64,000 nt of DNA from Escherichia coli (GTDB taxonomy: Bacteria; Pseudomonadota; Gammaproteobacteria; Enterobacterales; Enterobacteriaceae), in the NCBI RefSeq assembly GCF_050320075.1, contig NZ_CP190018.1; one strand, 5' to 3'. The position numbers and the translations under genes are program-made. The first letter of the stretch is position 1, and every line of letters begins with the position of its first letter. Below, piece after piece: positions 3,783 to 54,240 of this stretch. The notes below the pieces were generated by a model that saw only the letters and a list, made by a program, of their open reading frames with translations, was not told the origin of the DNA and made no database searches.

Positions 3783-4101
3783 AGTAGTCTCCTGAGGTTT
3801 TATTAGAATCATTATGTTTGAGCGTAGCGTTGGTAACGCTACCAGGCGCGTGAATGTTACCCCATTTTATGTATGGACATGTAGCGAAAACTACAACCTT
3901 GTCGTTCGCTTTGGCATCACTTTCATTATAAAGACGGAATTTTGCATCAGCTTCTCATCAAGAAAAACAACTAAAAAATCAATCACAATACTTGTGCATT
4001 TCTTTAAACAGTTTTTAAAAACTGACTCCGGGTATGGAGCTATGGGTATTTTCTCTACCCAATGCTTTTAACAGCAATTAATTTCATAGGATGAAAGCTC
4101 A

Positions 4102-6693
4102 ATGCATCAATCTGGTTCTGTTTCTCTTTGTCGTTCCGCAATATCTGTTCTGGTGGCTACAGCGTTATATTCACCCATAGCATTGGCATCAACAGTTGAG
4201 TATGGTGAGACAGTTGATGGTGTTGTCCTGGAAAAAGATATCCAGCTGGTTTATGGGACCGCCAATAATACGAAAATCAATCCTGGCGGAGAACAGCATA
4301 TTAAAGAATTTGGTATAAGTAGTAATACTGAAATTAACGGCGGGTATCAGTACATTGAAATGAATGGCACCGCAGAATACTCAATATTAAATGATGGTTA
4401 TCAAATTGTTCAAATGGGTGGTGCGGCAAACCAGACTACCCTCAATAATGGTGTGTTACAGGTTTATGGCGCAGCGAATGAACCTACGATTAAAGGCGGG
4501 CGCTTAATTATTGAAAAAGATGGGATTACCGTCTTTGCCGCTATCGAAAAGGGAGGATTACTGGAGGTTAAAGAGGGGGGATTAGCATTTGCGGTAGATC
4601 AGAAAGCCGGCGGTGCGATTAAAACAACCACCCGGGCCATGGAGGTATTCGGAACAAACCGTCTCGGTCAGTTCGATATCAAGGATGGTATTGCTAATAA
4701 TATGCTGTTGGAAAACGGCGGAAGTTTGCGAGTTGAAGAAAATGACTTCGCTTATAATACCACTGTGGATAGTGGCGGCTTACTGGAGGTTATGGATGGC
4801 GGGACTGCAACTGGCGTTGATAAAAAAGCAGGCGGAAAATTAATTGTCTCAACGAATGCGCTGGAAGTGAGTGGTACAAACAGTAAAGGCCAATTTAGTA
4901 TAAAAGATGGTGTGTCAAAAAATTATGAACTGGATGATGGTTCCGGGCTCATTGTTATGGAGGACACGCAGGCCATTGATACTATCCTTGATGAGCATGC
5001 CACTATGCAATCGCTGGGAAAGGATACTGGTACGAGAGTGCAGGCAAATGCGGTATATGATCTCGGTCGATCAGATCAGAATGGAAGTATCACGTATTCC
5101 TCAAAAGCCATCTCTGAAAATATGGTTATCAACAATGGCCGCGCTAACGTCTGGGCTGGCACAATGGTTAACGTTTCAGTCAGAGGGAATGATGGCATTC
5201 TTGAGGTCATGAAGCCGCAAATAAATTATGCGCCCGCAATGTTGGTGGGTAAGGTAGTGGTTTCTGATAGCGCTTCTTTTAGAACGCATGGTGCCGTGGA
5301 TACCAGCAAAGCGGATGTTTCGCTCGAAAATAGCGCATGGACCATCATTGCCGATATCACTACGACGAACCAAAACACTCGCCTCAACTTAGCCAACCTT
5401 GCGATGTCTGGCGCAAATGTGATTATGATGGCTGAGCCAGTGACTCGTTCATCTGTGACGGCAAGTGCGGAAAATTTCATTACGTTGACCACCAATACCC
5501 TGTCGGGAAATGGCAATTTTTATATGCGTACCGATATGGCTAATCATCAGAGCGATCAGCTCAACGTCACCGGTCAGGCAACAGGTGATTTCAAAATATT
5601 CGTGACGGACACCGGTGCCAGCCCGGCAGCAGGAGATAGCCTTACACTGGTAACAACGGGCGGCGGTGATGCTGCATTTACGTTGGGCAATGCCGGAGGC
5701 GTTGTTGATATCGGTACGTATGAATATACCTTGCTGGATAATGGCAACCATAGCTGGAGCCTCGCAGAGAATCGCGCGCAAATTACCCCTTCAACCACTG
5801 ATGTGCTGAACATGGCAGCAGCACAACCGCTGGTATTTGATGCAGAACTGGACACCGTGCGTGAGCGTCTTGGTAGCGTAAAAGGCGTTAGTTACGATAC
5901 GGCGATGTGGAGTTCGGCAATTAACACCCGCAACAACGTGACCACTGATGCGGGAGCTGGCTTTGAGCAAACATTGACGGGCCTGACGCTCGGTATCGAT
6001 AGCCGTTTCTCCCGTGAAGAAAGCAGCACAATTCGCGGCTTGTTCTTTGGTTACTCTCATTCTGATATTGGTTTTGATCGCGGCGGCAAAGGTAATATCG
6101 ATAGCTACACCCTGGGGGCTTATGCCGGTTGGGAGCATCAGAACGGTGCCTATGTTGATGGAGTGGTGAAAGTTGACCGTTTTGCCAACACCATCCATGG
6201 CAAGATGAGTAATGGAGCAACAGCGTTTGGCGATTACAATAGTAACGGCGCGGGTGCTCATGTCGAGAGCGGGTTCCGTTGGGTTGACGGATTGTGGAGT
6301 GTTAGACCCTATCTGGCCTTTACCGGCTTTACCACAGATGGTCAGGACTACACGTTATCAAATGGCATGCGCGCGGATGTGGGAAATACCCGGATATTAC
6401 GCGCTGAAGCGGGAACGGCGGTAAGCTATCACATGGACCTGCAAAACGGTACGACGTTGGAACCCTGGCTGAAAGCCGCCGTGCGTCAGGAATACGCCGA
6501 TTCTAACCAGGTGAAAGTTAATGACGATGGCAAATTTAATAATGATGTGGCTGGAACCCGTGGCGTTTATCAGGCTGGGATAAGGTCATCGTTTACCCCG
6601 ACGTTAAGCGGTCATTTGTCAGTCAGTTATGGCAATGGCGCAGGGGTAGAATCGCCGTGGAATATTCAGGCGGGTGTGGTCTGGACGTTCTGA
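4102..6693 (+). CDS. yejO: Autotransporter (type Va) outer membrane protein, intact 863 aa
   Basis: N-terminal signal peptide, long Gly/Thr/Asn-rich repetitive passenger, C-terminal beta-barrel ending in WTF; SD-like AGGATGA upstream of the ATG. Confidence 0.75.
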   Translation: MHQSGSVSLCRSAISVLVATALYSPIALASTVEYGETVDGVVLEKDIQLVYGTANNTKINPGGEQHIKEFGISSNTEINGGYQYIEMNGTAEYSILNDGYQIVQMGGAANQTTLNNGVLQVYGAANEPTIKGGRLIIEKDGITVFAAIEKGGLLEVKEGGLAFAVDQKAGGAIKTTTRAMEVFGTNRLGQFDIKDGIANNMLLENGGSLRVEENDFAYNTTVDSGGLLEVMDGGTATGVDKKAGGKLIVSTNALEVSGTNSKGQFSIKDGVSKNYELDDGSGLIVMEDTQAIDTILDEHATMQSLGKDTGTRVQANAVYDLGRSDQNGSITYSSKAISENMVINNGRANVWAGTMVNVSVRGNDGILEVMKPQINYAPAMLVGKVVVSDSASFRTHGAVDTSKADVSLENSAWTIIADITTTNQNTRLNLANLAMSGANVIMMAEPVTRSSVTASAENFITLTTNTLSGNGNFYMRTDMANHQSDQLNVTGQATGDFKIFVTDTGASPAAGDSLTLVTTGGGDAAFTLGNAGGVVDIGTYEYTLLDNGNHSWSLAENRAQITPSTTDVLNMAAAQPLVFDAELDTVRERLGSVKGVSYDTAMWSSAINTRNNVTTDAGAGFEQTLTGLTLGIDSRFSREESSTIRGLFFGYSHSDIGFDRGGKGNIDSYTLGAYAGWEHQNGAYVDGVVKVDRFANTIHGKMSNGATAFGDYNSNGAGAHVESGFRWVDGLWSVRPYLAFTGFTTDGQDYTLSNGMRADVGNTRILRAEAGTAVSYHMDLQNGTTLEPWLKAAVRQEYADSNQVKVNDDGKFNNDVAGTRGVYQAGIRSSFTPTLSGHLSVSYGNGAGVESPWNIQAGVVWTF

Positions 6694-6755
6694 TAACAGA
6701 AAATAAACAGGCCGTGATGTGTCGCGGTCTGTTTATCGAATTAAATGCAGATATA

Positions 6756-6788
6756 AAAAAACCAACCGTAAAGGTTGGTTTTTTTTGG
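6756..6788. terminator. Bidirectional intrinsic terminator (ACCAACC-GTAAA-GGTTGGT flanked by A-run and T-run)
   Basis: Perfect 7-bp stem with A7 upstream and T8 downstream; directly followed by a degenerate copy of the tRNA-Pro 3' end, so it likely marks the island's right junction. Confidence 0.6.
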
Positions 6789-7162
6789 GATTTTTGGCAC
6801 GAGAGTAGTTTAATTGAGCCTGTAACTGTATGATTTTAAAGATGTAGATTAATTGAGTTTTGAAATCGTATATCCAAACGTATAACTAAAATGATTTGCT
6901 GCAAAAATGTACAGCTTTAACCGTTATCATTTTCCGGCTATTCGCTATGAAGCTGGCTGGTGGATAAGCACGGATAACCTGACATCTACAGCCGCCTTAA
7001 AAGCTGAACCCGACAAGCATATCGGCATCATGCCCACCAGCGTGACGCATTTTTTTAATTGCGCGGGCGTAAAAATTTGACGGGGCGGACAGTTCCATAA
7101 GTAATGGATTGCAGGAATTTCGCCCCCCCTCCTGAATGCAATTTTTCGTATATATATACAAA

Positions 7163-7290
7163 ACCACCCGTCCCACCTGTCCCGCCTGTCCCACTGGCAC
7201 CTAACAAATTGATTTTGTTAGAAATAAATTAGGTAAGGTAGGACAAGTCCAGGCTGTTTTGGGACAAGTTGGGGGGGAGGTGGGACAAGT
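7163..7290. repeat. Iteron block 1: three GTCCC units at ~10-bp spacing, 8-bp palindrome CTAACAAA-N5-TTTGTTAG, three GGGACAAGT units at ~21-bp spacing
   Basis: Read directly: TCCCACCTGTCCCGCCTGTCCCA at 7169-7194; palindrome at 7201-7221; G(G)GACAAGT at 7241, 7261, 7282. Confidence 0.6.
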
Positions 7291-7824
7291 CGAGCGAGTG
7301 AATCAAGCCGTGTTAGCGCGGTAAAGCGACAGTGCCGCCGCAATTTTGCGTTGTCGGGAGGCCACCGTAACAGCCACCATACGCGCACAATCTTCGGTGG
7401 TAACGCAATCCAGACGTGCGCAACATCCCCAGATAGGAAATCATTACCTAGCACAGCTAATTGCGCCAGAATCGATTACAGCGCGTTTCTGTGGCATTCA
7501 AGAACGGCTATCACTAGTGTATTGATATGTAATCCGCATATGAGTTTAAGCAACAAAATGATCCCCTTTCGAAAAAGGCACTAACCGTTTTTTCCGAAAT
7601 GATCCGTTGGTGATTTTGTAACTTATTGTTTTGTAGATGTAATTTTAAACTTGATAGGGTTATAAATAGGGGGCGTTTTTGTCAAGAATTGCAAATAATG
7701 CTCGTTTATTGTTCTTTGTTTGTTTGTTTTCTGTTCGTTGATGGGGGATCATTTTGCACTTTTTGGGGGATCATTTCGGAGGGGGGGGGCTGGCAACACG
7801 CCAGCACCCTCGATGCGTTTGTTT

Positions 7825-8034
7825 TTAGCAGTACTCCCAGTCTGTGGCTAGTAGGCTCTCAGGAGATAGCGTAACGCTATCCTCTGTGACGGGATTCAAC
7901 GCAATCAAATCGTTTCCGCGCCGTTCGAGAAAGACGATGTACGGAAGATGCCAGGCACTGCGGCGAGCTGGCACGCGTCGGCCTGGCTGCAACTTGTCGA
8001 GAATATCCACCAGCGAAACGTTCATGTGATTCAA
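7825..8034 (-). CDS. Hypothetical small protein (69 aa with TTG start; 66 aa from internal ATG)
   Basis: ORF with AGGAG about 5 nt upstream of the TTG; last gene of the ssb-finO-perC cluster; no recognisable family. Confidence 0.35.
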   Translation of the reverse strand: MNHMNVSLVDILDKLQPGRRVPARRSAWHLPYIVFLERRGNDLIALNPVTEDSVTLSPESLLATDWEYC

Positions 8035-8090
8035 AAAACTCCTGAAACGCTCTACAACTCAATAACACAAAAAATAATGCAGAACTGCCA

Positions 8091-8375
8091 CTATAAAACC
8101 TTGTCTGTCTGGTAGTTCCGCCAGACAGATTTTGCGATTTCTATCCCCATATCCGCCTGTGTGCGGTGTGCTGCCTCTCTCAAGCTCCCGAAATTATCCA
8201 GCATGACGGGCGAACGTGCTGCCTTGTGGATACATTTCGCGCGACGCTTTACTGCCTGTTCGCGCTCCTTATCGGTGTTCACCTGTTGCATGACCTCAGC
8301 CCATCGGGCCGCCGCTCTCCGGTACAGGCCTTTAGCCTCCAGATCTTCCGCTTTGCTGTCGTGAATCATACTCAT
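8091..8375 (-). CDS. PerC-family transcriptional activator-like protein (94 aa)
   Basis: Motif EDLEAKGLYRRAAARWAEV resembles the PerC family signature; start ATG overlaps stop of upstream gene (ATGA coupling). Confidence 0.5.
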   Translation of the reverse strand: MSMIHDSKAEDLEAKGLYRRAAARWAEVMQQVNTDKEREQAVKRRAKCIHKAARSPVMLDNFGSLREAAHRTQADMGIEIAKSVWRNYQTDKVL

Positions 8376-8908
8376 ACGCCAGCTTGCTCCTTGTTCGACT
8401 TACGTTTGCGCTTCTCTTTCAGTGCCATCAGTCGTGCTTCCGCGTCCTGCTGTTCCTGTTGTGTCACCTCGCCGCATGGCTGGCTATTCAGATCGTAACG
8501 CACGCCACCAGCCATTAAGGCACGGTAATAACGCGGAGAATGAGCATAAGATGCTAGCGCCGCACGTAATGCCCCTGACCCAAAAGCCAGCGCCCTGACG
8601 GCAATATCCTGTATCAGGTCTTCAAATATTCCTACCTTAAGCGGCTTCGGTGATTCCAGGCTGAATAATTCAGGCCATAGTTCAATAAGACGGTTAACGC
8701 GCCTGCGGTTTTTGCCCTGGCGTTTGGTCATATGCCGCCACGGTGTCGCCCCTGTGGGCTTCTGTTTGCGGCTCTGCTGTGCGTTCTGATTGCCGGGTAT
8801 CACTTTATGCGCTGATGTGGTTTTATCCTGCTGCTGTGTCGTCTGTGTCTTTTTCTGTGGTATGCCGTAAATGCCTTTCGGTTTTCTGCTAATAGTCAGT
8901 GTAGTCAT
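8372..8908 (-). CDS. ProQ/FinO-domain RNA-binding protein (178 aa) with basic low-complexity N-terminal extension
   Basis: C-terminal two thirds align by eye with E. coli ProQ N-terminal domain (PLKVGIFEDL..., LRAAL.SY..S.RY...GG.RYDL...PCGE). Confidence 0.6.
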   Translation of the reverse strand: MTTLTISRKPKGIYGIPQKKTQTTQQQDKTTSAHKVIPGNQNAQQSRKQKPTGATPWRHMTKRQGKNRRRVNRLIELWPELFSLESPKPLKVGIFEDLIQDIAVRALAFGSGALRAALASYAHSPRYYRALMAGGVRYDLNSQPCGEVTQQEQQDAEARLMALKEKRKRKSNKEQAGV

Positions 8909-8943
8909 TATTTGTTAACCTCTGTTAGTGAATCCACTGGCAG

Positions 8944-9369
8944 TTAAAATGGTATTTCGTCCTCATACGGGTCATCCTGCTGGCCCGTCTGCTGCTTTGT
9001 TCTGTTCAGTGCGTCAGTAGCCTGCCCTTGCTGTCCTTTCCTGCCTCCTGGTCGCACGGTTCGCGCACTGATTACGCTGCCTGCGATGACCTGCCAGCCC
9101 TGCCGCATTTCCCCGTTCTGGTCTGTCCACTGGCTTATCTGCATGTTACCCGCCACGCTCACCAGTTCGCCTTTCTGGTGTTTTGCCAGTGCATCGGCCT
9201 GTCTGCCAAACGCCAGGACGGATAACCACATCGTCGCTGTTCCGTCATATGCCTGACTGCACGGAAGGGGAACAGCCATACTCACCAGCGCCATTGGTGT
9301 TCCCTTGCTGGTGGTTTTTAACTGCGGGTCAGCCACCAACCGCCCGTAAGCTGATATTTGTGCCGTCAT
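8944..9369 (-). CDS. ssb: Single-stranded DNA-binding protein (SSB-like, 141 aa)
   Basis: OB-fold pattern similar to E. coli SSB (W..V.AFG, WTDQNG) and acidic C-terminal tail EDEIPF (cf. DDDIPF). Confidence 0.6.
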   Translation of the reverse strand: MTAQISAYGRLVADPQLKTTSKGTPMALVSMAVPLPCSQAYDGTATMWLSVLAFGRQADALAKHQKGELVSVAGNMQISQWTDQNGEMRQGWQVIAGSVISARTVRPGGRKGQQGQATDALNRTKQQTGQQDDPYEDEIPF

Positions 9370-9444
9370 ATTGTCTGCTCTCCGGTTTTAAATGTTGGTT
9401 GGATTTTTAATGTCCACCAGCCAGGCAAAAAATAACGCCTGCTG

Positions 9445-9580
9445 ACTTGTCCCAAAATGCTCCTAACTTGTCCCAAAATCACCTTAACTTGTCCCGCTCT
9501 TGTCCCACTTTTTCTGATATTACCCAATATAATTCAGTATGTTATGTGTGTTTCTCACAGGTTGGGACAGGTGGGACAAG
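9445..9580. repeat. Iteron block 2: four ACTTGTCCC units (~21-bp spacing) plus GGGACAGGTGGGACAAG; inverted copy of block 1
   Basis: ACTTGTCCC at 9445, 9466, 9487; TTGTCCC at 9500; GGGACAGGTGGGA at 9564-9576 is the exact reverse complement of TCCCACCTGTCCC in block 1. Confidence 0.6.
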
Positions 9581-9605
9581 AGTCTTTAAACCTACACGCG
9601 AGAGA

Positions 9606-11741
9606 TTAACCACCTTCATCATCATGATCCTGTGCAAGTAAAAGGCCGTACACCCTTAGTCGTGCCCCCTTCATGTGCTTAAGACGTGGTGTTCTGATTT
9701 GCCATCCTTCCCCGCTGGCTGGCTTTTTCAGCATTCCGGCTTCGTGAAGGGCTCTTGCTACGGCATCCTTGTTAAATCCCTTCGCCACATGCGATTTAAA
9801 TGGCTCCGGCAGGACGTAAAACAAAACAGGCTCACCGTAACGCCCCTCGCTTTCCCTGTAGCCGTACAGTTCTGAAATCGGCAGGCTTGCAGGGTCATAA
9901 TTGACAGGCGCAAACCTGCTCATGCCGTAGGCAGTAAGAAATGCCTCTGCCTGTTCAATAATCTGCCTGTGTTCCTTGTTACCCGTGCCGAACTCCTTCA
10001 CCCAGGCATTAAAGTTATGCTGAATGGCATCACAGCACGTCTGAACATTCCAGCCCGTAACATGACCGGACAGCACAAGCGCGGCCTCCAGTATGGCGAA
10101 TCGTTCCCCTACGCGATGAACCTGTTCGCCGTAGCTCTCCGGTATTAGGTTGCGCCACCGTTCACGGCACGCCCTTACCGTGTCCTTAGCCTCCTGCTGG
10201 TGGGCTGCCAGCCATTTAACCCATTCACGACCCGCCGCCCCGTGGTTTTCTGTCCAGGCGGCTTTTAACGCGTCTGCGTGCGCCTTTCCTGTGCTGTATT
10301 CGTGAAACTGCGTAGACTTCTCCATCGGCACGTTAAGCAACCTGACAAGCTGCCCCGCCTTGACTTTTATCCCCTCACTTTTGAGGAATGTTTCAACATC
10401 CATTTCTCCGGTACTGATCGCCACCGTGCGCCAGTGTTTTATCTCCCGGTTGCCGCCGTCCTTCGCCCCCTGTAATTTCCCGGAACCGTTAAACAGCGTA
10501 TAGGCTGACGTGGACACCTCCCGCGCGTTTCCGGCCTGGCCTATTTCATCCAGGGGTAACAGCCCGTCGTTGTGCGCCTCTGCCTCGTTAGCGATACCTA
10601 ACGCTGTGCCGTACCAGGTCAGCCGTTGCGCGTCCGGCTCTCCCCATAAACTTGATGCGATGTTCTGTGTGGTGGTTTTCCCTGCCGATGATTGTTCGAA
10701 AAGATGTACCCCGAAGCCGTCAGCGCCCACCAGCCCGATTAATGGTGCTGATAACGATACCGCCACACCCAGCATCATGGACGGATTACCACCAGCCAGT
10801 CGCGCCACTGTATCGCGCCAGCCCTCTGTCGTTCCTGCTACGGAATAACCATTAACGGCAGCCGTTTTTCCGGTAAACAGGATCGGTTTTTCAGACTCAC
10901 CAATGACTGAACCGTCCGGCATGATGTACGCGCCAAAATGCCACCCCGTTGTTGTGCTTAACTGCCATTCCTCATGGTTTCCGTTTAACTGCATCCAGTC
11001 AGCCAGGATAGCCCTGTATTTGCCGTTGGTTGTCACATTGAGTCCGTGGTCTTTCAGCAGCCGCCAGCCGTCACGGTCGCCAATGCCACCGCACGGGATC
11101 GCCATTGTGATGACTTCATGATTTGCTAATTTTTTCCAGCGCATCACGCGGTAATGCTCTTTACCGATCGTTCCCGTTCCCAGTAGTTCAAGCGGGGAAC
11201 ATAACCACGCCTCAGGCCGGATAATTTCGCCTGACTGTTTGTCAACTTTGGGCGTTACCCAGAAAACACCATCGGCGCGACTTTCAACGCGGGGTTTTAA
11301 TTCATCATCGCCCTGGCTTTCTGTGATTTTTTTCTTTAAGGGCAACACCAGACTTTCCCCGCGCTCGTATTCGTCTTTGAGGCGAGGCAACTGGTCGGAT
11401 AAATCCGCCGGGCTGGTGTCAGTTATCCCCGCATATTCGTATACGGTCTTCACGCCAGCCACAGCCAGCAATGTGACGATCTGTGTAAGGCTACGTTCAG
11501 TGATGTGCCCTGCGCGGTAAACACGCACACACTGACGGCTATCATCAATAATCTGATAACCGGTAATATCTTTCAGGTGTTCATCTGACAGAACGACAGG
11601 CGGCACATTGTCGGCGGCAATATGCTTACCTGCCCATTCCTGCCACTCTTTCGCATGGCTCCACGCATCACTACCCGCAAAAATGATAACCTCCGTCATT
11701 TTGTCGGCTGGCTGGTGCTTTAAGTTCGGTGCGCGTTTCAT
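9606..11741 (-). CDS. Replicative primase-helicase (TOPRIM-like N-terminus plus P-loop NTPase, 711 aa)
   Basis: Walker A-like SSAGKTT, large size, position downstream of int/alpA as in P4 alpha-type and PICI pri-rep genes; start overlaps upstream small ORF. Confidence 0.75.
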   Translation of the reverse strand: MKRAPNLKHQPADKMTEVIIFAGSDAWSHAKEWQEWAGKHIAADNVPPVVLSDEHLKDITGYQIIDDSRQCVRVYRAGHITERSLTQIVTLLAVAGVKTVYEYAGITDTSPADLSDQLPRLKDEYERGESLVLPLKKKITESQGDDELKPRVESRADGVFWVTPKVDKQSGEIIRPEAWLCSPLELLGTGTIGKEHYRVMRWKKLANHEVITMAIPCGGIGDRDGWRLLKDHGLNVTTNGKYRAILADWMQLNGNHEEWQLSTTTGWHFGAYIMPDGSVIGESEKPILFTGKTAAVNGYSVAGTTEGWRDTVARLAGGNPSMMLGVAVSLSAPLIGLVGADGFGVHLFEQSSAGKTTTQNIASSLWGEPDAQRLTWYGTALGIANEAEAHNDGLLPLDEIGQAGNAREVSTSAYTLFNGSGKLQGAKDGGNREIKHWRTVAISTGEMDVETFLKSEGIKVKAGQLVRLLNVPMEKSTQFHEYSTGKAHADALKAAWTENHGAAGREWVKWLAAHQQEAKDTVRACRERWRNLIPESYGEQVHRVGERFAILEAALVLSGHVTGWNVQTCCDAIQHNFNAWVKEFGTGNKEHRQIIEQAEAFLTAYGMSRFAPVNYDPASLPISELYGYRESEGRYGEPVLFYVLPEPFKSHVAKGFNKDAVARALHEAGMLKKPASGEGWQIRTPRLKHMKGARLRVYGLLLAQDHDDEGG

Positions 11742-12025
11742 TTCTTGCCCCCAGTAACCAGCATTTCGCGGATTTTGCGGATATATCTTGCTGCACGGTT
11801 CTGATTTACGGTTTCACGATGATCCACCAGCGTAAAATCACGCTGGAACTGATAAACAGGCATCACGCAGTCATATTCGTATCCTTCACGGCGGTAGGTC
11901 ATGCGTCGTTCACTCACGCCCTTAATCATTACCGTGCTGCCGTATTTATCGCGGTAAATATCGCCGTGCATGAATTCAGGACGAGTTTTACCGCTGGCAG
12001 TAAAGCCAGAATTTTTTGCTTTCAT
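11738..12025 (-). CDS. Hypothetical protein (95 aa), translationally coupled to primase-helicase
   Basis: ORF stop overlaps primase start codon; coding-like composition; no family recognised. Confidence 0.45.
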   Translation of the reverse strand: MKAKNSGFTASGKTRPEFMHGDIYRDKYGSTVMIKGVSERRMTYRREGYEYDCVMPVYQFQRDFTLVDHRETVNQNRAARYIRKIREMLVTGGKK

Positions 12026-12064
12026 TTATCGAATTACGTTTTTGTTAAAGCTGTATTAATGAGA

Positions 12065-12250
12065 TTAATGAACTGTCGCCACTTCAATTACGGCACGGAT
12101 CATCACCTGCGTGAACCCACAGCCGATTAACTCTTCTTTCAATATTGCGATAGCTGCATTAACGCTGGTGGCGTTCACGTTTTGCTGATTATCAATAACG
12201 TGGCCTTGATGATTTACAGCGCGTGCGGTTATCTGAAATCGCTTAAGCAT
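12065..12250 (-). CDS. Hypothetical small protein (61 aa)
   Basis: ORF preceded by GGGGTGAGG SD-like sequence; start overlaps stop of upstream small ORF. Confidence 0.4.
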   Translation of the reverse strand: MLKRFQITARAVNHQGHVIDNQQNVNATSVNAAIAILKEELIGCGFTQVMIRAVIEVATVH

Positions 12251-12431
12251 GCCTCACCCCCTGACGAATACGGGCAGCGAATACAGCAACACAGCCGGAC
12301 GGGCAACAGTTACGCGCTTCTCGTTCGGTTGATGCCTCGACGTGAACAATACGGGAATCAGTCGGATTAAAGATGACAAAGCGCCAGATAAATGTGTTTT
12401 GAGAATGTTCGAGGGTAGGGGTAGTAGCCAT
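12243..12431 (-). CDS. Small protein (62 aa), possibly Icd-like (host cell division inhibitor-like) as annotated in P4-like elements
   Basis: Strong SD AGGAGG 7 nt upstream of ATG; FIWRF and FAAR motifs recalled from Icd-like annotations (memory-based, uncertain). Confidence 0.45.
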   Translation of the reverse strand: MATTPTLEHSQNTFIWRFVIFNPTDSRIVHVEASTEREARNCCPSGCVAVFAARIRQGVRHA

Positions 12432-12640
12432 TTGGCAGCCTCCTGTAACGTTGGGATATACCCACCGCCGGAGGTGGTAAGCTCGATGGCGGTGGACTGT
12501 ACAGGGTTACCACAACTGGTGTTACAGGAAACCAGCCTGACCGAAGTCAGCCCCATACAGCCCACCATTGATAAGGCGTGCGCGTGCGCCGATACAAAAA
12601 AAGACGCCTGGCGCGTCTGTATCGCCTGTAACTCCAGCGG
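12432..12640 (-). ncRNA. Candidate structured regulatory RNA / leader (P4 immunity-like seqA-seqB-seqC arrangement)
   Basis: On the minus strand: GTTACAGG (12632-12625), intrinsic terminator, UUCG-tetraloop hairpin (12550-12537), complementary CCTGTAAC (12528-12521), then GTTACAGGAGG (12449-12439) overlapping the SD of the first ORF. Confidence 0.3.
12595..12618 (-). terminator. Intrinsic terminator inside the leader region (AGACGC-loop-GCGTCT followed by T7 on minus strand)
   Basis: 6-bp GC-rich stem, 5-nt loop, run of seven T on the transcribed strand. Confidence 0.5.
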
Positions 12641-13077
12641 GGTGGTAATCCCGACACCCGTTTTATGAGGTGCGCAGGGAGTATATCCCGTTTTCTTGCT
12701 CATGTGGTCGGATGTGTTGAAGGTGTGCCCACCACACAAATCACATTGCTCACCAGCCGGAAATATGGCATTGTTGGCGATGCATTCAAGTTTAATATAT
12801 GCCTTCTGGCGACCCTCTGCGGTCGCCTTTGTTTTATTCGTAAGCAACATATTTCTTTTGTCGTTTAAGCTATGCGATTGTACGTTTCCGTTTAAAACGG
12901 AAGTGCTATTAGTTCAATTAATTCGTTCGTACGGTTTGAACTGAATAATAACATCAGCCATAATTTTTTATGGTTGAACGAAAACCTGCCCCTGTTTGGG
13001 CATTTTTGCCAGTATTCATAATGTTCTCTCTTAATTGTTTTGTTGCTTGATAGTAATCAGGCCAGCGTTAATCACAC

Positions 13078-13269
13078 TTATGCTTCACGAGTTTCTCTCT
13101 CACGTTCTTTCAACCAGGCGAGTACCTCATCTTCATACCAGCCAATGCGACGCAGCCCGATACGGAATCCTTTGGGGAACCCGCCTTTGTTAACCATCTC
13201 CGTTAGGGTCGAATCAGATTTAATGCGTAGCAAGGCCTTTACCTCTGGTCGTAAAAGAATAGCCCTCAT
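13078..13269 (-). CDS. alpA: AlpA-family phage transcriptional regulator / excisionase-like (63 aa)
   Basis: Small HTH protein with LLR..EV......S.ST......G.FP....IG.R.IGW...EV..WL pattern; position between integrase and replication genes. Confidence 0.7.
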   Translation of the reverse strand: MRAILLRPEVKALLRIKSDSTLTEMVNKGGFPKGFRIGLRRIGWYEDEVLAWLKERERETREA

Positions 13270-13474
13270 CCTATTTCTCCTCTGGACAGCAAAATATCGC
13301 TTTTTGAATGAAAATAACGGTAAGTAATGTAATAAGCATACAAATCTATAAAAAAGACAGTCAAGAATTATTTAATAAGAGCTATGTGATTGGTTATTTT
13401 TTAATTTTCTAACATAAAAAGAATTTAAATGTTTCTCAAAATGAGACAGTATTGAGAAAGTAATGAGACACAAA

Positions 13475-13506
13475 TTAGCTCCTAACTGATACCAATTAGG
13501 AGCTAA
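13475..13506. promoter_or_regulatory. Perfect 11-bp inverted repeat TTAGCTCCTAA-N10-TTAGGAGCTAA in the AT-rich int-alpA intergenic region
   Basis: Read directly; lies just downstream of int stop and upstream of alpA promoter region; could be int terminator and/or operator. Confidence 0.35.
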
Positions 13507-13522
13507 TAATTTTTTAAATATT

Positions 13523-14767
13523 TTATTTTATTCCGCGTAATCCTCTGTGCCCGCTGGCGATGGTTGTTCCGGTTGCGGCTGCTTCCACAAAATCACCCCA
13601 CCAGCACATTAACACTTTACGTTTTTCCAGGTAGTTGCTTCGGTTGTATGCCCGTCTAACTTCGTTTGTGTCCACGTGGGCTAGTGCGGCTTCGATCACG
13701 TCAGGTTCAAATCCTTCTTCATTCGCCGCCGTGCTGAATATTGCGCGTAGTCCGTGAGATACCAGCACACCAGCGTAACCCATTCGTCGTAATGCTGCGT
13801 TTGCTGTCTGGCTGCTCATTGATTGCACTGGATTTTTAAGACTTGGGAAAACATGCTCCCTTCGTGCGCTAATCGGCTTCATGGCTTCAAGCACTGCCAT
13901 CGCCTGAGCGCAAAGGGGGATCACATGATCACGGCGCATCTTCATGCGTCCGGCTGGTATCGTCCAGGTTGCCGCCTCAAGGTTGATTTCTTCCCACCGT
14001 GCGGCGGAGGCTTCGGCTGGGCGGGTTGCGGTTAACAACTGCCACTCAATCAGCAATCTGGTTTGCCGTTCTATGCTGGCGATCGATAAATCGTGCATTA
14101 GCTGCGGTAGTTGTTCCGGTCGGATGGTTGGCATGTGCTTTTTGGTGGGGGAAGGGAATGCCTTGCGAACGTTCGCGGCGGTGTTGATGTCAATCAGTCC
14201 ACTGTTGGCAGCAAAATCCATCACTTCATTGATGCGCTGTAAAACGCGTTTCAGTGTTTCCAGGTTGCCACGTGCCTTGATGGGCGTGAGTATCTCAACA
14301 AAGCGGCGAGCGGTGAGAGTATCTATCGGTGTGTTTCCGATATACGGGAATACATATTTCTCTAGCGAGCGCCAGATGTCCTTGATCGTATTGTGGGCGA
14401 GATTCTGGTTTTTTTTCATTTCGTACCACAATGCGGCCACATTTTCGAACGTGTTGCCCTGTCGTCGAGCCTCTGCTTCGAGTTTTTGCCGTTCGTATTC
14501 CTGCGGGTCGGTTCCTGCCGCAATTAACGTCCTGTACTCGCTACGGCGTTTTCTGGCATCAGCCAGGGAGACTTCATCAAGCGAGCCCAAACTAATGATT
14601 GTTCGTTTTTTGTTCGATGGTCGATAGTAGTTGAATCGCCATAGTTTCGAACCAGACGGCTTAATAACGAGAAAAAGCCCGCCGCCATCCTGTAAGGTGT
14701 ATTCTTTTTCCGCTGGTTTAGCTGCTTTGATCTGTGTGGTGGTGAGTGGGGTCGCCTTTCTTGCCAT
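13523..14767 (-). CDS. int: Tyrosine site-specific integrase, P4-type (414 aa)
   Basis: N-terminal arm-binding-like domain (LTTTQIKAAKP...GGGLFLVIKPSGSKLWRF), C-terminal catalytic region with HGLRA and terminal tyrosine region; adjacent to tRNA gene. Confidence 0.85.
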   Translation of the reverse strand: MARKATPLTTTQIKAAKPAEKEYTLQDGGGLFLVIKPSGSKLWRFNYYRPSNKKRTIISLGSLDEVSLADARKRRSEYRTLIAAGTDPQEYERQKLEAEARRQGNTFENVAALWYEMKKNQNLAHNTIKDIWRSLEKYVFPYIGNTPIDTLTARRFVEILTPIKARGNLETLKRVLQRINEVMDFAANSGLIDINTAANVRKAFPSPTKKHMPTIRPEQLPQLMHDLSIASIERQTRLLIEWQLLTATRPAEASAARWEEINLEAATWTIPAGRMKMRRDHVIPLCAQAMAVLEAMKPISARREHVFPSLKNPVQSMSSQTANAALRRMGYAGVLVSHGLRAIFSTAANEEGFEPDVIEAALAHVDTNEVRRAYNRSNYLEKRKVLMCWWGDFVEAAATGTTIASGHRGLRGIK

Positions 14768-14973
14768 ACGTTTATGAATCCACGGGAAAAAACAGGTTCT
14801 AGTTATACGGATTTAGCTATGCGCCAGCCCGTATAACTAAACATATAACTAAAAAAAACGGCTGAAAACCACTGTTACCGTCGAATAACGATGACTAAAA
14901 ACAATAAAAAAACCCGCTATTCAATGAATTAGCGGGCTTATTTCATAAAAACGATAATTAATAATGGGCGATT

Positions 14974-15050
14974 TGGTCGGCACGAGAGGATTTGAACCTC
15001 CGACCCCCGACACCCCATGACGGTGCGCTACCAGGCTGCGCTACGTGCCG
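14974..15050 (-). tRNA. proL: tRNA-Pro (anticodon GGG), 77 nt with encoded CCA
   Basis: Reverse complement reads CGGCACGTAGCGCAGCCTGGTAGCGCACCGTCATGGGGTGTCGGGGGTCGGAGGTTCAAATCCTCTCGTGCCGACCA; cloverleaf with GGG in anticodon loop. Confidence 0.9.
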
Positions 15051-18459: not shown

Positions 18460-18852
<393 letters not shown>

Positions 18853-41810: not shown

Positions 41811-42086
41811 GTGGCTTCTGTTTCTATCAGCTGTCCCTCCTGTTCAGCTACTGACGGGGTGGTGCGTAACGGCAAAAGCACCGCCGGACATCAGCGCTAT
41901 CTCTGCTCTCACTGCCGTAAAACATGGCAACTGCAGTTCACTTACACCGCTTCTCAACCCGGTACGCACCAGAAAATCATTGATATGGCCATGAATGGCG
42001 TTGGATGCCGGGCAACTGCCCGCATTATGGGCGTTGGCCTCAACACGATTTTCCGCCATTTAAAAAACTCAGGCCGCAGTCGGTAA
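41811..42086 (+). CDS. insA: IS1 InsA (91 aa)
   Basis: [43 protein letters not shown]... zinc-finger/HTH protein of IS1. Confidence 0.9.
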
Positions 42087-42508
42087 CCTCGCGCATACAG
42101 CCGGGCAGTGACGTCATCGTCTGCGCGGAAATGGACGAACAGTGGGGATACGTCGGGGCTAAATCGCGCCAGCGCTGGCTGTTTTACGCGTATGACAGGC
42201 TCCGGAAGACGGTTGTTGCGCACGTATTCGGTGAACGCACTATGGCGACGCTGGGGCGTCTTATGAGCCTGCTGTCACCCTTTGACGTGGTGATATGGAT
42301 GACGGATGGCTGGCCGCTGTATGAATCCCGCCTGAAGGGAAAGCTGCACGTAATCAGCAAGCGATATACGCAGCGAATTGAGCGGCATAACCTGAATCTG
42401 AGGCAGCACCTGGCACGGCTGGGACGGAAGTCGCTGTCGTTCTCAAAATCGGTGGAGCTGCATGACAAAGTCATCGGGCATTATCTGAACATAAAACACT
42501 ATCAATAA
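42005..42508 (+). CDS. insB: IS1 InsB reading frame (expressed as InsAB' transposase by -1 frameshift)
   Basis: Frame contains [22 protein letters not shown]...[13 protein letters not shown] typical of IS1 InsB; listed start is the open-frame boundary, not a true initiation codon. Confidence 0.8.
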
Positions 42509-42523
42509 GTTGGAGTCATTACC

Positions 42524-43391
42524 ACATCCGGCAATAGATTTATTAGGCATCACCATTGTGGCGGGTAATCAGACGCTTGATAAAACATTAATTAATGGCC
42601 TGAATGTTTGCCAGAAACTGGAGATTAATGTTCCGGTTTATGCGGGGATGCCACAGCCCATTATGCGTCAACAAATCGTTGCCGATAATATTCACGGTGA
42701 AACCGGACTGGATGGCCCGGTATTCGAGCCGCTGACCCGCCAGGCAGAAAGCACTCATGCGGTGAAATATATCATCGATACCCTGATGGCAAGCGATGGC
42801 GATATCACTCTGGTGCCGGTTGGTCCGCTTTCAAATATCGCGGTGGCAATGCGCATGCAGCCCGCAATCCTGCCGAAAATCCGTGAAATTGTGCTGATGG
42901 GCGGCGCTTACGGTACTGGCAACTTTACGCCATCCGCCGAGTTCAACATCTTTGCTGACCCGGAAGCCGCACGCGTGGTGTTCACCTCCGGCGTTCCGTT
43001 GGTGATGATGGGCCTCGATCTCACCAACCAGACCGTTTGCACCCCGGACGTGATTGCCCGGATGGAAAGGGCAGGCGGCCCTGCCGGAGAGCTGTTCAGC
43101 GACATCATGAACTTCACTCTCAAAACCCAGTTCGAAAACTATGGCCTGGCTGGCGGCCCGGTGCACGACGCCACCTGCATCGGTTATCTGATCAACCCTG
43201 ATGGCATTAAAACCCAGGATATGTACGTCGAAGTGGATGTTAACAGTGGCCCTTGCTATGGGCGTACCGTCTGCGACGAGCTGGGCGTTCTTGGCAAGCC
43301 AGCCAATACCAAAGTCGGCATCACTATTGATACCGACTGGTTCTGGGGCTTAGTCGAAGAGTGCGTGCGCGGCTACATCAAAACCCATTAA
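42524..43391 (+). pseudogene. rihB: rihB (pyrimidine-specific ribonucleoside hydrolase), 5'-truncated by IS1; lacks the N-terminal DxDxxxDD region
   Basis: Translation matches RihB from about residue 21 onward ([19 protein letters not shown]...); apparent TTG start of the six-frame ORF lies inside the IS1 end. Confidence 0.75.
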
Positions 43392-50814: not shown

Positions 50815-52167
50815 ATGTTTAGGTTGAACCCTTTCGTACGGGTCGGGCTGTGTTTGTCCGCTATTTCTTGTGCATGGCCTGTGTTAGCGGTCGATGATGA
50901 TGGCGAAACGATGGTTGTCACTGCATCTTCCGTTGAGCAAAACCTTAAAGATGCACCCGCCAGTATCAGCGTCATTACCCAGGAAGACCTGCAGCGAAAA
51001 CCGGTACAGAATCTGAAGGATGTCCTCAAAGAAGTGCCTGGCGTACAACTGACGAACGAAGGGGATAACCGTAAGGGCGTTAGTATTCGTGGTCTGGGCA
51101 GCAGCTACACCCTGATTCTCGTCGACGGTAAACGCGTTAACTCCCGCAATGCCGTCTTCCGCCACAATGATTTCGATCTGAACTGGATCCCGGTCGATTC
51201 CATCGAACGTATTGAAGTGGTCCGTGGCCCGATGTCGTCGCTGTACGGTTCCGATGCGCTCGGCGGTGTAGTGAATATCATCACCAAAAAAATCGGTCAG
51301 AAATGGTCGGGTACCGTTACCGTCGATACCACCATTCAGGAACATCGCGATCGCGGTGATACCTATAACGGTCAGTTCTTTACCAGCGGACCATTAATTG
51401 ACGGCGTGCTGGGAATGAAAGCTTACGGCAGCCTGGCAAAACGTGAAAAGGATGACCCGCAAAACTCAACGACCACCGATACCGGAGAAACGCCGCGTAT
51501 TGAAGGATTCTCCAGCCGCGACGGCAATGTGGAATTTGCCTGGACACCGAATCAAAATCACGATTTTACTGCCGGATACGGTTTCGACCGTCAGGATCGT
51601 GATTCCGACTCGCTGGACAAAAACCGCCTGGAACGCCAGAACTACTCCGTCAGCCATAATGGGCGTTGGGATTACGGCACCAGCGAACTGAAATACTACG
51701 GTGAGAAAGTCGAGAACAAAAACCCTGGCAACAGCAGCCCGATAACTTCCGAAAGCAATACGGTCGACGGCAAATACACGTTGCCGCTGACGGCGATTAA
51801 TCAGTTTCTCACGGTTGGCGGTGAATGGCGTCACGACAAACTTAGCGATGCGGTGAACCTGACCGGGGGAACCAGTTCCAAAACGTCTGCCAGCCAGTAC
51901 GCGCTGTTTGTGGAAGATGAATGGCGGATCTTCGAGCCGCTGGCGCTGACGACCGGCGTACGTATGGACGATCATGAAACCTACGGTGAACACTGGAGTC
52001 CGCGTGCCTACCTGGTTTATAACGCCACCGACACCGTAACGGTGAAAGGGGGCTGGGCGACGGCATTTAAAGCACCTTCTCTGTTGCAACTTAGCCCTGA
52101 CTGGACGAGCAATTCCTGCCGTGGCGCATGTAAGATTGTGGGTAGCCCGGATCTGAAACCAGAAACC
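50815..52167 (+). pseudogene. cirA: cirA 5' segment (catecholate siderophore / colicin I receptor), interrupted by IS150
   Basis: TonB-dependent receptor with signal peptide and plug domain; frame continues across the IS with 3-bp duplication. Confidence 0.85.
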
Positions 52168-52193
52168 TGTACTGACCCCAAAAAGTTGGACAG

Positions 52194-53045
52194 TTAAACA
52201 CGAGGCATATAGGTCTGATTCCGATATTCAATTGGAGTCAGACCTTTTAATTTCAGGCTAATTCTTCTGCTGTTGTAGTATTCAATATATTCCGTAACAG
52301 CATCCTTCAGTTCGCTTATATTACTGAACTCATCAAGATAAAAACACTCCGACTTTAAGGTTCCAAAGAAACACTCCACCACAGCATTATCCAGACAATT
52401 GCCTTTTCTGGACATGCTTTGTTTAATACCATGTTCTTTAAGGATATTTTGATATCTTCTCATACGATACTGCCATCCCTGGTCAGAGTGCAGAACAGGA
52501 TGCTCGTGAGGATTAAGCTTTTTGAATGCCTGATCGAGCATATTCTCAACCATGTTCATCACTGGTCTTTCCGAAAGGCTGTAAGAAATAACTTCGTTGT
52601 TGAAGAGATCTATTACTGGAGACAAATACAGCTTGCGCCCATTGACTACAAATTCAGTAACATCGGTAACCCACTTCTCGTTTGGCCGCGTAGCCTTGAA
52701 ATCTCTTTGGAGAACATTAGGGGCGGTTTGCCCTACCTCTCCTCTGTAAGAGCGGTATCGCTTGACCTTAATCGCTGCTTTAAGTGAGAGGGTTCCCATC
52801 AGGCGCTGAACAGCTTTATGGTTAATCTGTTTCCCTTCTCGATGAAGAGACAGCGTTACCCTACGGTATCCGTATCGGCCTCTATTCTCGTGATAAATCT
52901 CACCAATACGCTTTTTAACGTCCGCATACTTGTCAGGCTTGCTGAGAGCCTTTAGATGGTAATAAAACGTACTGCGCGGTATCTCCGCAGCCCTGAGAAG
53001 CTCATCAAGAGGATAAAACTGCCTTAGCTCGTTGAGTACTTTTAC
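52194..53045 (-). CDS. insK: IS150 orfB (InsK, DDE transposase domain; fused to orfA by -1 frameshift)
   Basis: Integrase-core motifs (HSDQGWQY...); upstream boundary approximated at the orfA/orfB overlap. Confidence 0.75.
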
Positions 53046-53563
53046 TTTTTCGTGGGATGAGCTAAGGCTTTCAGCTTTTTTAGATACATAAGCCGCGTTT
53101 CAAGAAATCGAACTTGCCTTTCAAGATCCTCAATGCGTCGGTCTTTTGACAGCTCCAATGCTGATGCCGCTTTTTCTGGATCAACTGATATTGCAATGTT
53201 TCTTTTGGTGCCAATCTTGAGCGCGCGTAAACCAGCTTCTCCGCGCTCTTCATAGACCTTCAGCCACCTGGCTACAGAACCACTACCAGCAAGCATAAAG
53301 TGAGCAGCAGCCTGATTAAGGGACATGTGCTGCTCGATCACAGCTTTCACGACCTTAATACGCAACTCTGGATCAGCACTAACGCCTTTAGGTTTGGGAA
53401 TTAAACCTTTTTCTCCATGTTTTTCATAGAGGGCAACCCATGTCCTGACCTGGGTTCGGGGGACACCAAAACGTGCCGAGATGATCCTGTAACCATCATC
53501 AGTTGTGAAGTAGTGATTCACGACTTCAAGGCGCTTTTCAAAAGGGTATTTTGGCTTTGACAT
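53042..53563 (-). CDS. insJ: IS150 orfA (InsJ, HTH protein), 173 aa
   Basis: MSKPKYPFEKRLEVVNHYFTTDDGYRIISARFGVPRTQVRTWVALYEKHG... matches IS150 InsJ as recalled. Confidence 0.9.
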   Translation of the reverse strand: MSKPKYPFEKRLEVVNHYFTTDDGYRIISARFGVPRTQVRTWVALYEKHGEKGLIPKPKGVSADPELRIKVVKAVIEQHMSLNQAAAHFMLAGSGSVARWLKVYEERGEAGLRALKIGTKRNIAISVDPEKAASALELSKDRRIEDLERQVRFLETRLMYLKKLKALAHPTKK

Positions 53564-53610
53564 ATTAGGGGCTATTCCATTTCATCGTCCAACAAAATGG
53601 GTGCAGTACA

Positions 53611-54240
53611 ACCAGCGAAAGTTGGGAACTGGGGCTTTACTACATGGGCGAAGACGGCTGGCTGGAAGGGGTAGAGTCCAGCGTTACCGTTTTCCGTAAC
53701 GATGTGAAAGATCGCATCAGCATCAGCCGTACGTCTGACGTCAATGCTGCACCGGGCTACCAAAACTTTGTTGGTTTTACAGCGAACGGTGTGCCGGTAT
53801 TTAGCTACTACAACGTTAACAAAGCTCGTATTCAGGGCGTGGAAACCGAACTGAAAATTCCGTTCAACGATGAATGGAAACTGTCGATCAACTACACCTA
53901 CAACGATGGTCGTGATGTCAGCAACGGCGAAAACAAACCGCTATCCGATCTGCCGTTCCATACTGCTAACGGTACGCTGGACTGGAAACCGCTGGCGCTG
54001 GAAGACTGGTCATTCTATGTTTCTGGTCACTATACCGGGCAGAAACGAGCCGACAGCGCGACGGCTAAAACACCGGGCGGTTATACCATCTGGAATACCG
54101 GCGCGGCCTGGCAGGTGACTAAAGACGTCAAACTGCGCGCAGGCGTGCTGAACCTTGGCGACAAGGATCTCAGTCGTGACGACTACAGCTATAACGAAGA
54201 CGGACGTCGTTACTTTATGGCAGTGGATTATCGCTTCTGA
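53611..54240 (+). pseudogene. cirA: cirA 3' segment (C-terminal beta-barrel, ends ...AVDYRF)
   Basis: In-frame continuation of the 5' segment after removal of IS150 plus one ACC copy; terminal aromatic residue typical of outer membrane barrels. Confidence 0.85.

Follow-up and report, generated by a model that had tools for sequence, protein, structure and literature searches.

The stretch of Escherichia coli DNA analysed here, referred to below as the window, comprises 64,000 nucleotides (nt) of contig NZ_CP190018.1 (assembly GCF_050320075.1). At positions 4102..6693, on the + strand, it carries yejO, the gene of a predicted autotransporter, which follows ccmH and narP and is separated from the convergent tRNA gene proL by an integrative island. 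Island aside, the gene order ccmH-narP-yejO-(island)-proL-yejM is the same as in strain K-12, O157:H7, and the B strain REL606. The locus is the chromosomal yejO of E. coli, at its usual site between narP and the tRNA-Pro gene proL. Two observations place the gene in the YejO orthologue group: it lies between narP and proL and is convergent with proL, here with the island interposed, and its product is nearly identical over its full length to recognised YejO proteins.

The yejO frame and its K-12 counterpart

In the open reading frame (ORF) listing of the window, yejO is a single frame with an ATG start and 863 codons plus a stop, the product ending in ...QAGVVWTF directly before the stop codon. 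At 48% GC, an open frame of 2.6 kb is far from what chance would be expected to yield. The preliminary description of this DNA had reported an uninterrupted frame of 863 amino acids (aa) running from a signal peptide to a barrel that ends in WTF, and its coordinates and length agree exactly with the listing. The gene's sequence agrees at 100% with that of yejO in NZ_CP123240.1 (WP_049067937.1, 'autotransporter YejO'), and the same nucleotide sequence is present in the independent complete genomes YZLc1-3 and Ecol_545. Direct translation also gave an 863-aa yejO in O157:H7 strain 1130, REL606, and YZLc1-3. The window gene aligned collinearly and without gaps to its 863-aa counterparts in O157:H7 strain 1130 and REL606 and to K-12 yejO with its insertion sequence (IS) removed; at the protein level, the window YejO differs at 18 positions from the O157:H7 allele and at 26 from that of REL606. 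The preliminary description had named beforehand what would speak against it, a frameshift or an early stop by comparison with full-length homologues; neither was seen against any of these three. In addition, all 13 invariant columns of the family alignment are present in the window protein. The window yejO is a complete, intact copy.

In the K-12 genome (MG1655, NC_000913.3), the annotation treats yejO (b2190) as a pseudogene in two pieces, of 67 nt and 2525 nt, with IS5K (insH8) between them. Inactivation of the K-12 gene by IS5K has also been reported (PMC11005336); together with the annotation, this bears out the statement in the preliminary description that the K-12 copy is an IS-disrupted pseudogene. 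This insertion is one of eleven IS5 copies in BW25113 (PMC11677980). IS5K follows nucleotide 67 of the coding sequence, in codon 23, and so falls within the signal peptide. Removal of the IS and of one copy of its 4-bp target duplication (TTAT) gave a reconstructed K-12 gene of 2592 nt and 863 codons with no further lesion, and this reconstruction is identical to the window yejO at 97.5% of DNA positions and 97.0% of protein positions (837/863), with no gaps. By alignment, the site equivalent to the K-12 insertion lies at 4165..4168 (+) of the window and is uninterrupted. Thus the two copies share the locus narP-yejO-proL and their length, and the window copy differs only by the absence of IS5K and the 4-bp duplication and by 26 amino-acid substitutions, most of them (23) in the passenger domain described below.

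Domain architecture and predicted surface display

Profile searches with YejO gave matches to the Pfam families AIDA (two stretches, 9.6e-52), Pertactin (residues 431-555, 5.3e-45), and Autotransporter (PF03797, residues 602-841, 6.2e-46, 157.6 bits against a cut-off of 26), and to NCBIfam TIGR01414 (residues 456-863, 1.7e-111, 373 bits against a cut-off of 16). An AlphaFold2 model, for which the input was a 70-sequence alignment of YejO alleles plus distant relatives, had a mean predicted local distance difference test score (pLDDT) of 86.1, with residues 1-27 disordered (pLDDT <50).

At the N-terminus, a Sec signal peptide is predicted for aa 1-29 (4102..4188, +), with cleavage after ALA, from sequence features and hydropathy assessed by hand. 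The sequence reads MHQSGSVSLCRSAISVLVATALYSPIALA up to the cleavage site and STV beyond it; it can be divided into MHQSGSVSLCR, a charged n-region (R11), and SAISVLVATALYSPIALA, which contains the hydrophobic core (residues 12-26). Kyte-Doolittle hydropathy peaks at 2.1 over residues 13-23, and an A-L-A cleavage motif occupies residues 27-29, so that n-region, hydrophobic core, and A-x-A motif are all present, as the signal peptide of the preliminary description would lead one to expect.

Residues 30-561 (4189..5784, +) form the predicted passenger, for which Pfam, the PDB, the model, and Foldseek all point to a right-handed beta-solenoid that carries AIDA repeats and resembles pertactin in its C-terminal part; in the model it appears as periodic short strands that make up a solenoid from about residue 31 to 561. 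Within it, a 74-aa (222-nt) unit is present twice in tandem, at approximately aa 159-232 and 233-306 (4576..5019, +; local alignment score 154). The sole long helix of the model is a linker at aa 563-592 (5788..5877, +) that is predicted to run through the barrel pore, and its counterpart is the pore helix in those beta-domains that Foldseek matched, namely BrkA, EspP, and NalP. The C-terminal translocator, a 12-stranded beta-barrel at aa 600-863 (5899..6690, +), is identified by PF03797, the model, and Foldseek; the match to PF03797 and the twelve long strands that the model shows over residues 600-862 agree with the barrel previously proposed. A sequence of the form polar-x-G-x-x-aromatic-x-aromatic is the beta-signal consensus of outer-membrane proteins, through which they are recognised by the beta-barrel assembly machinery (BAM). 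The last eight residues of YejO, QAGVVWTF, fit this consensus.

Searches of the PDB pointed to known autotransporters. With Foldseek, the top matches of the passenger were Antigen 43 (Ag43) structures (7KOH/7KO9, E = 1e-24), and the barrel matched the BrkA beta-domain (3QQ2; template-modelling (TM) score 0.90, root-mean-square deviation 2.8 A) and EspP (TM 0.82-0.86). A sequence search of the PDB found Ag43 at 9.4e-37 as well as TibA, Vag8, BrkA, and pertactin. YejO therefore has the features of a type Va autotransporter, namely a predicted Sec signal peptide, a 12-strand barrel, a pore helix plus beta-helical passenger, and a C-terminal beta-signal. For the functional adhesin-like autotransporter that, according to the preliminary description, the strain may express, every structural prerequisite is in place.

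Like Ag43 (Flu/Cah), AIDA-I, and TibA, YejO combines type Va architecture with AIDA-type beta-helix repeats, but its passenger is shorter than theirs. Ag43 is the top match of the passenger by both sequence and structure, yet identity in the structural alignments is only 21-27%. Membership in the Ag43 and AIDA-I equivalogs was rejected, since YejO scored 132.1 bits with auto_Ag43 and 70.8 bits with auto_AIDA-I, each against an NCBIfam cut-off of 1200. Judged from profile scores, YejO is an AIDA-I-type relative that would fall outside the specific Ag43 and AIDA-I families, and the nearest representative outside the YejO cluster is only 46% identical. Unlike AIDA-I and TibA, YejO has no adjoining heptosyltransferase gene of the Aah/TibC type, its neighbours being narP and the P4-like island, and no glycosyltransferase of that type is annotated within the 64 kb window. 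Two stretches of YejO match the heptosylation-target repeat TIGR04415.

From what is known of the family, we infer the following route to the cell surface. The 29-residue signal peptide would carry YejO through Sec to the periplasm, where BAM, recognising the beta-signal QAGVVWTF, would insert the 12-strand barrel into the outer membrane. The passenger (aa 30-561) would then reach the cell surface while the linker helix (aa 563-592) stays in the pore, and the displayed passenger would fold as an Ag43-like beta-helix whose most likely role is that of an adhesin or aggregation factor. Architecture and intactness are seen directly in this DNA, and export, display, and adhesion are what the protein, if expressed, is predicted to achieve. 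We are highly confident that the window yejO is an intact chromosomal gene at its usual site that encodes a classical monomeric, AIDA-I-type autotransporter of type Va.

Distribution, inactivation and expression of yejO

A megablast search with the yejO ORF against 5,426 complete E. coli genomes, a collection in which K-12 derivatives are over-represented, found the locus in 5,421 of them, and in 4,281 at least 80% of the ORF was covered. Allele states were read from 60 of the 5,421 matches, sampled at even spacing, so the fractions are rough and do not represent translation of every locus. The sample held 41 full-length one-piece matches, three IS5-split alleles of the K-12 type, three alleles lacking 222 nt, and 13 remnants covering 9-36% of the ORF. 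Five of the 41 full-length matches align only from nucleotide 4, and two more bear indels and are annotated as frameshifted, which leaves 34/60 (57%) apparently intact, gap-free, and with an ATG start. When a 200-bp probe spanning the K-12 insertion point was used, it was uninterrupted in 5,015 genomes and matched in two places in 368 records; because the probe is split in these 368 records, the K-12 IS5 lesion amounts to about 7% of this lab-strain-rich collection. Under the name 'autotransporter YejO', exactly the window protein is public on 1000 contigs or more, and its 90%-identity cluster has 16,859 member sequences. Intact yejO is the commonest state in E. coli, with K-12 the exception, and the intact form is presumably ancestral.

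The IS5 insertion in K-12 is one of several independent, lineage-specific inactivations of yejO. In NZ_CP027586.1 (strain 2012EL-2448, locus 298-2889), one of the five sampled genomes matching only from nucleotide 4, ATT stands in place of the ATG start and there is a nonsense codon (W789*); the alignments suggest that the five may share this start-codon change. In two remnant alleles, from a urine and a cerebrospinal fluid isolate (L008 and L009), codon 67 is followed by a stop and two stretches are deleted, one of them ORF nt 473-1476 or 403-1556 and the other nt 1931-2564, the latter deletion removing most of the barrel. A coverage pattern of 30-36% like that of these two remnants was observed in LF82 and other sampled genomes. 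Published surveys place YejO in commensal and diarrhoeagenic genomes and describe it as truncated in uropathogenic E. coli (PMC3426408, citing Wells et al. 2010), and as missing from sequence type 131 (PMC5654935); the remnant alleles, which are of the B2/extraintestinal pathogenic E. coli type, fit the published truncation pattern. We did not count O111:NM 2010C-3053 (8 gap positions) and SMN013SH2 (15 gap positions) as firm inactivations, their gaps being possible long-read assembly errors. A different kind of variation is seen in strain K71-77, a blood isolate whose 789-aa allele (WP_000554212.1) is annotated as intact. It lacks exactly 74 residues, with the gap placed by the alignment at window aa 168-241, and the 222-nt deletion found in 3/60 sampled genomes represents variation in the copy number of a repeat in a surface protein.

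For yejO, a gene near-universal in E. coli, being intact is the ordinary state and one that has been annotated and published already; the IS5 disruption in K-12 and the presence or truncation of the gene across pathotypes have likewise been published before. The claim of intactness made for this strain was right but not noteworthy: K-12 is an atypical reference here, and an intact yejO is no reason to flag a strain-specific gain. The catalogue of independent inactivations offers a modest pointer to lineage-specific selection. One could go further and propose that selection maintains YejO in non-B2 E. coli as an adhesin for gut colonisation and that its repeated independent loss is adaptive, not neutral, citing the IS5 insertion, the ATG to ATT change plus W789*, the two-deletion barrel-less remnant, and the loss of one 74-aa repeat. 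We regard this as unlikely, though if it were true, what the losses brought might be an escape from immunity or a pathoadaptive change in extraintestinal lineages, and the chicken-isolate allele would be a functional, niche-relevant surface protein.

The region from which yejO would be expressed is the 289-bp narP-yejO intergenic region (3813..4101, +), which contains an uncharacterised promoter and a Shine-Dalgarno sequence (AGGA) at 4088-4091. By sequence comparison it is identical to K-12 at 286/289 positions, to O157:H7 at 286/289, and to REL606 at 285/289. The promoter, PyejO, has likewise been termed 'uncharacterized' (PMC11677980). An Rfam scan found no RNA element within or antisense to yejO.

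Several points weigh against taking the window gene as that of a working autotransporter. The intergenic region is AT-rich (37% GC), and none of its 289 bp gave a sigma-70 match of at least 9/12, a looser scan yielding a single weak 8/12 match. In a compendium drawn from 3,376 sets of RNA-seq data, the K-12 yejO fragment downstream of IS5 ranks 4501st with a count of 106 (PMC10392735), placing it among the least-detected genes. The signal peptide was judged by hand and not by a trained predictor, and the recurrent pseudogenisation in other lineages suggests that the gene is dispensable in many niches. Moreover, the searchable literature yielded no study of what YejO does, and the papers found there mention it only for its K-12 pseudogene status, its distribution, or its inclusion in an antigen panel; intact alleles are the right starting material for functional tests of this functionally uncharacterised protein.

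It is conceivable, then, that the yejO ORF is intact but cryptic: like several other autotransporter genes of E. coli, it might be mostly silent through, for example, H-NS-type repression, and be on its way to the decay that other lineages show. The AT-rich upstream region with its lack of a sigma-70 match at that threshold would suit such a gene, as would the 99% identity of this region to that of K-12, where expression is so low, and the independent inactivations by IS5, by ATG to ATT plus W789*, by double deletion, and possibly by frameshifts. However, the K-12 expression figure comes from an IS5-split allele, in which polarity may explain the low count, and an identical 863-aa protein has been kept on the many contigs noted above. 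The pattern of substitution relative to K-12 also argues the other way. In the passenger, 21 differences are synonymous and 23 non-synonymous, whereas in the barrel region 14 are synonymous and only 3 non-synonymous, an excess that is consistent with continuing purifying selection on the translocator. Because of this 14:3 pattern in the barrel region, as opposed to 21:23 in the passenger, continued function of YejO would be favoured. We consider a cryptic gene possible but doubtful; it is also compatible with, and does not exclude, the explanation that we prefer, in which an intact autotransporter gene would be expressed conditionally.

Two further readings concern the product itself. The passenger might serve some other role at the surface, such as the complement or serum resistance conferred by BrkA and Vag8. 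Vag8 (7AKV) matches YejO residues 459-860 at 3.9e-36, BrkA matches residues 582-863 at 4.7e-19, and the BrkA barrel is the top structural match of the C-terminal domain. Yet what YejO shares with BrkA, Vag8, and pertactin of Bordetella is a pertactin-like junction domain and a 12-strand barrel, to which these matches are confined; they reflect common secretion machinery, by which function is not determined. The likeness is limited to the secretion unit, and the N-terminal functional passenger of YejO is unrelated to those of the Bordetella proteins and resembles instead the self-associating adhesins Ag43, TibA, and AIDA-I, which makes a BrkA-like role very improbable. Alternatively, the intactness could be an artefact or could mask an inactivating missense change that leaves the product non-functional. 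No positive evidence favours this, the only material for it being the 26 substitutions relative to K-12, 23 of which lie in the passenger. Against it stand the same nucleotide sequence in YZLc1-3 and Ecol_545, the same protein on at least 1000 contigs, the retention of 13/13 invariant family columns, and a confident AlphaFold2 model. A missense change or artefact has already been largely refuted, and we give it almost no weight. An intact gene for an AIDA-I-type autotransporter remains our preferred account of the locus.

The island at proL and other features of the window

Between the convergent yejO and proL genes lies an intrinsic terminator (6755..6795, +), a hairpin with a 13-bp stem, AAAAAAACCAACC-GTAAA-GGTTGGTTTTTTT, followed by a T-run in a T-rich tail. 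It is also present in O157:H7 and, with respect to the junction with the island, has stayed next to yejO. Comparison with the island-free O157:H7 genome locates the left junction of the island at 6796..6805, where GGCACGAGAG repeats part of the 3' end of proL (a short 10-nt attachment (att) core); homology to island-free genomes stops at window position 6797. The island itself, about 8.2 kb long (6806..14973, -; RefSeq annotation of an identical genome, Rfam), is followed by its integration target, proL, encoding tRNA-Pro(GGG) (14974..15050, -; ARAGORN, Rfam). In island-free genomes, proL is approximately 100 bp from the yejO stop, and here it is displaced by 8.2 kb. The preliminary description had placed yejO directly beside an island insertion site, and indeed an integrase-bearing island of 8.2 kb is inserted at proL, starting about 104 bp past the yejO stop. 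The island leaves yejO and its terminator untouched. A direct-repeat search with a 12-nt seed found no long att repeats flanking the island; the junctions, read against an island-free genome, showed only the 10-nt core GGCACGAGAG.

All annotated island genes are on the - strand: they encode an integrase (13523-14767), a helix-turn-helix protein (13078-13269), an Icd-like protein (12243-12431), a DUF927 primase (9606-11741), a single-stranded DNA-binding protein (8944-9369), a ProQ/FinO protein (8372-8908), and a PerC-family regulator (8091-8369), together with an ash pseudogene and a DUF4222 gene. From 6806 to 8090 of the window there is no convincing ORF and no annotated gene. Within the island, Rfam detected a C4 antisense RNA (78.7 bits) and the Hfq-binding RNA isrK (61.6 bits), at 12485-12572 (-) and 12597-12673 (-), both of which overlap the 'ash family' pseudogene stretch. 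This stretch looks like the RNA immunity region of P4/P1-type elements, and because of the gene set plus the C4 antisense and isrK RNAs we classify the island as P4-like. It is present over at least 80% of its length in just 52 of the 5,426 complete E. coli genomes.

The island also contains iteron-like repeats around GGGACAAG at 7231, 7273, and 9564 (reference copy GGGGGAGGTGGGACAAG), spanning 7231-7289 and 9564-9580. Two tandem copies of the complementary CTTGTCCCAAAATG (9439-9480) lie immediately downstream of the gene for the DUF927 primase. The layout may recall the origin (ori)/crr pair of P4, an analogy that we draw by inference only.

Over its length, the window is closely matched by E. 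coli YZLc1-3, an isolate from chicken faeces (Yangzhou, China), with 0 mismatches over 1-21900 and 1 over 15017-64000. Elsewhere in the window, cirA (50815-54240), the gene for the catecholate siderophore and colicin Ia-Ib receptor, is split by IS150 at 52194-53563 (-) into an N-terminal part (50815-52167) and a C-terminal part (53611-54240). A strain with an intact yejO therefore has an IS-disrupted outer-membrane protein gene of its own. IS1B (41811-42508) truncates the N-terminus of rihB, which encodes a ribosylpyrimidine nucleosidase and the rest of which lies at 42525-43391. Lastly, Rfam identified the L25 ribosomal-protein leader upstream of rplY (18766-18791, -), an expected housekeeping element.

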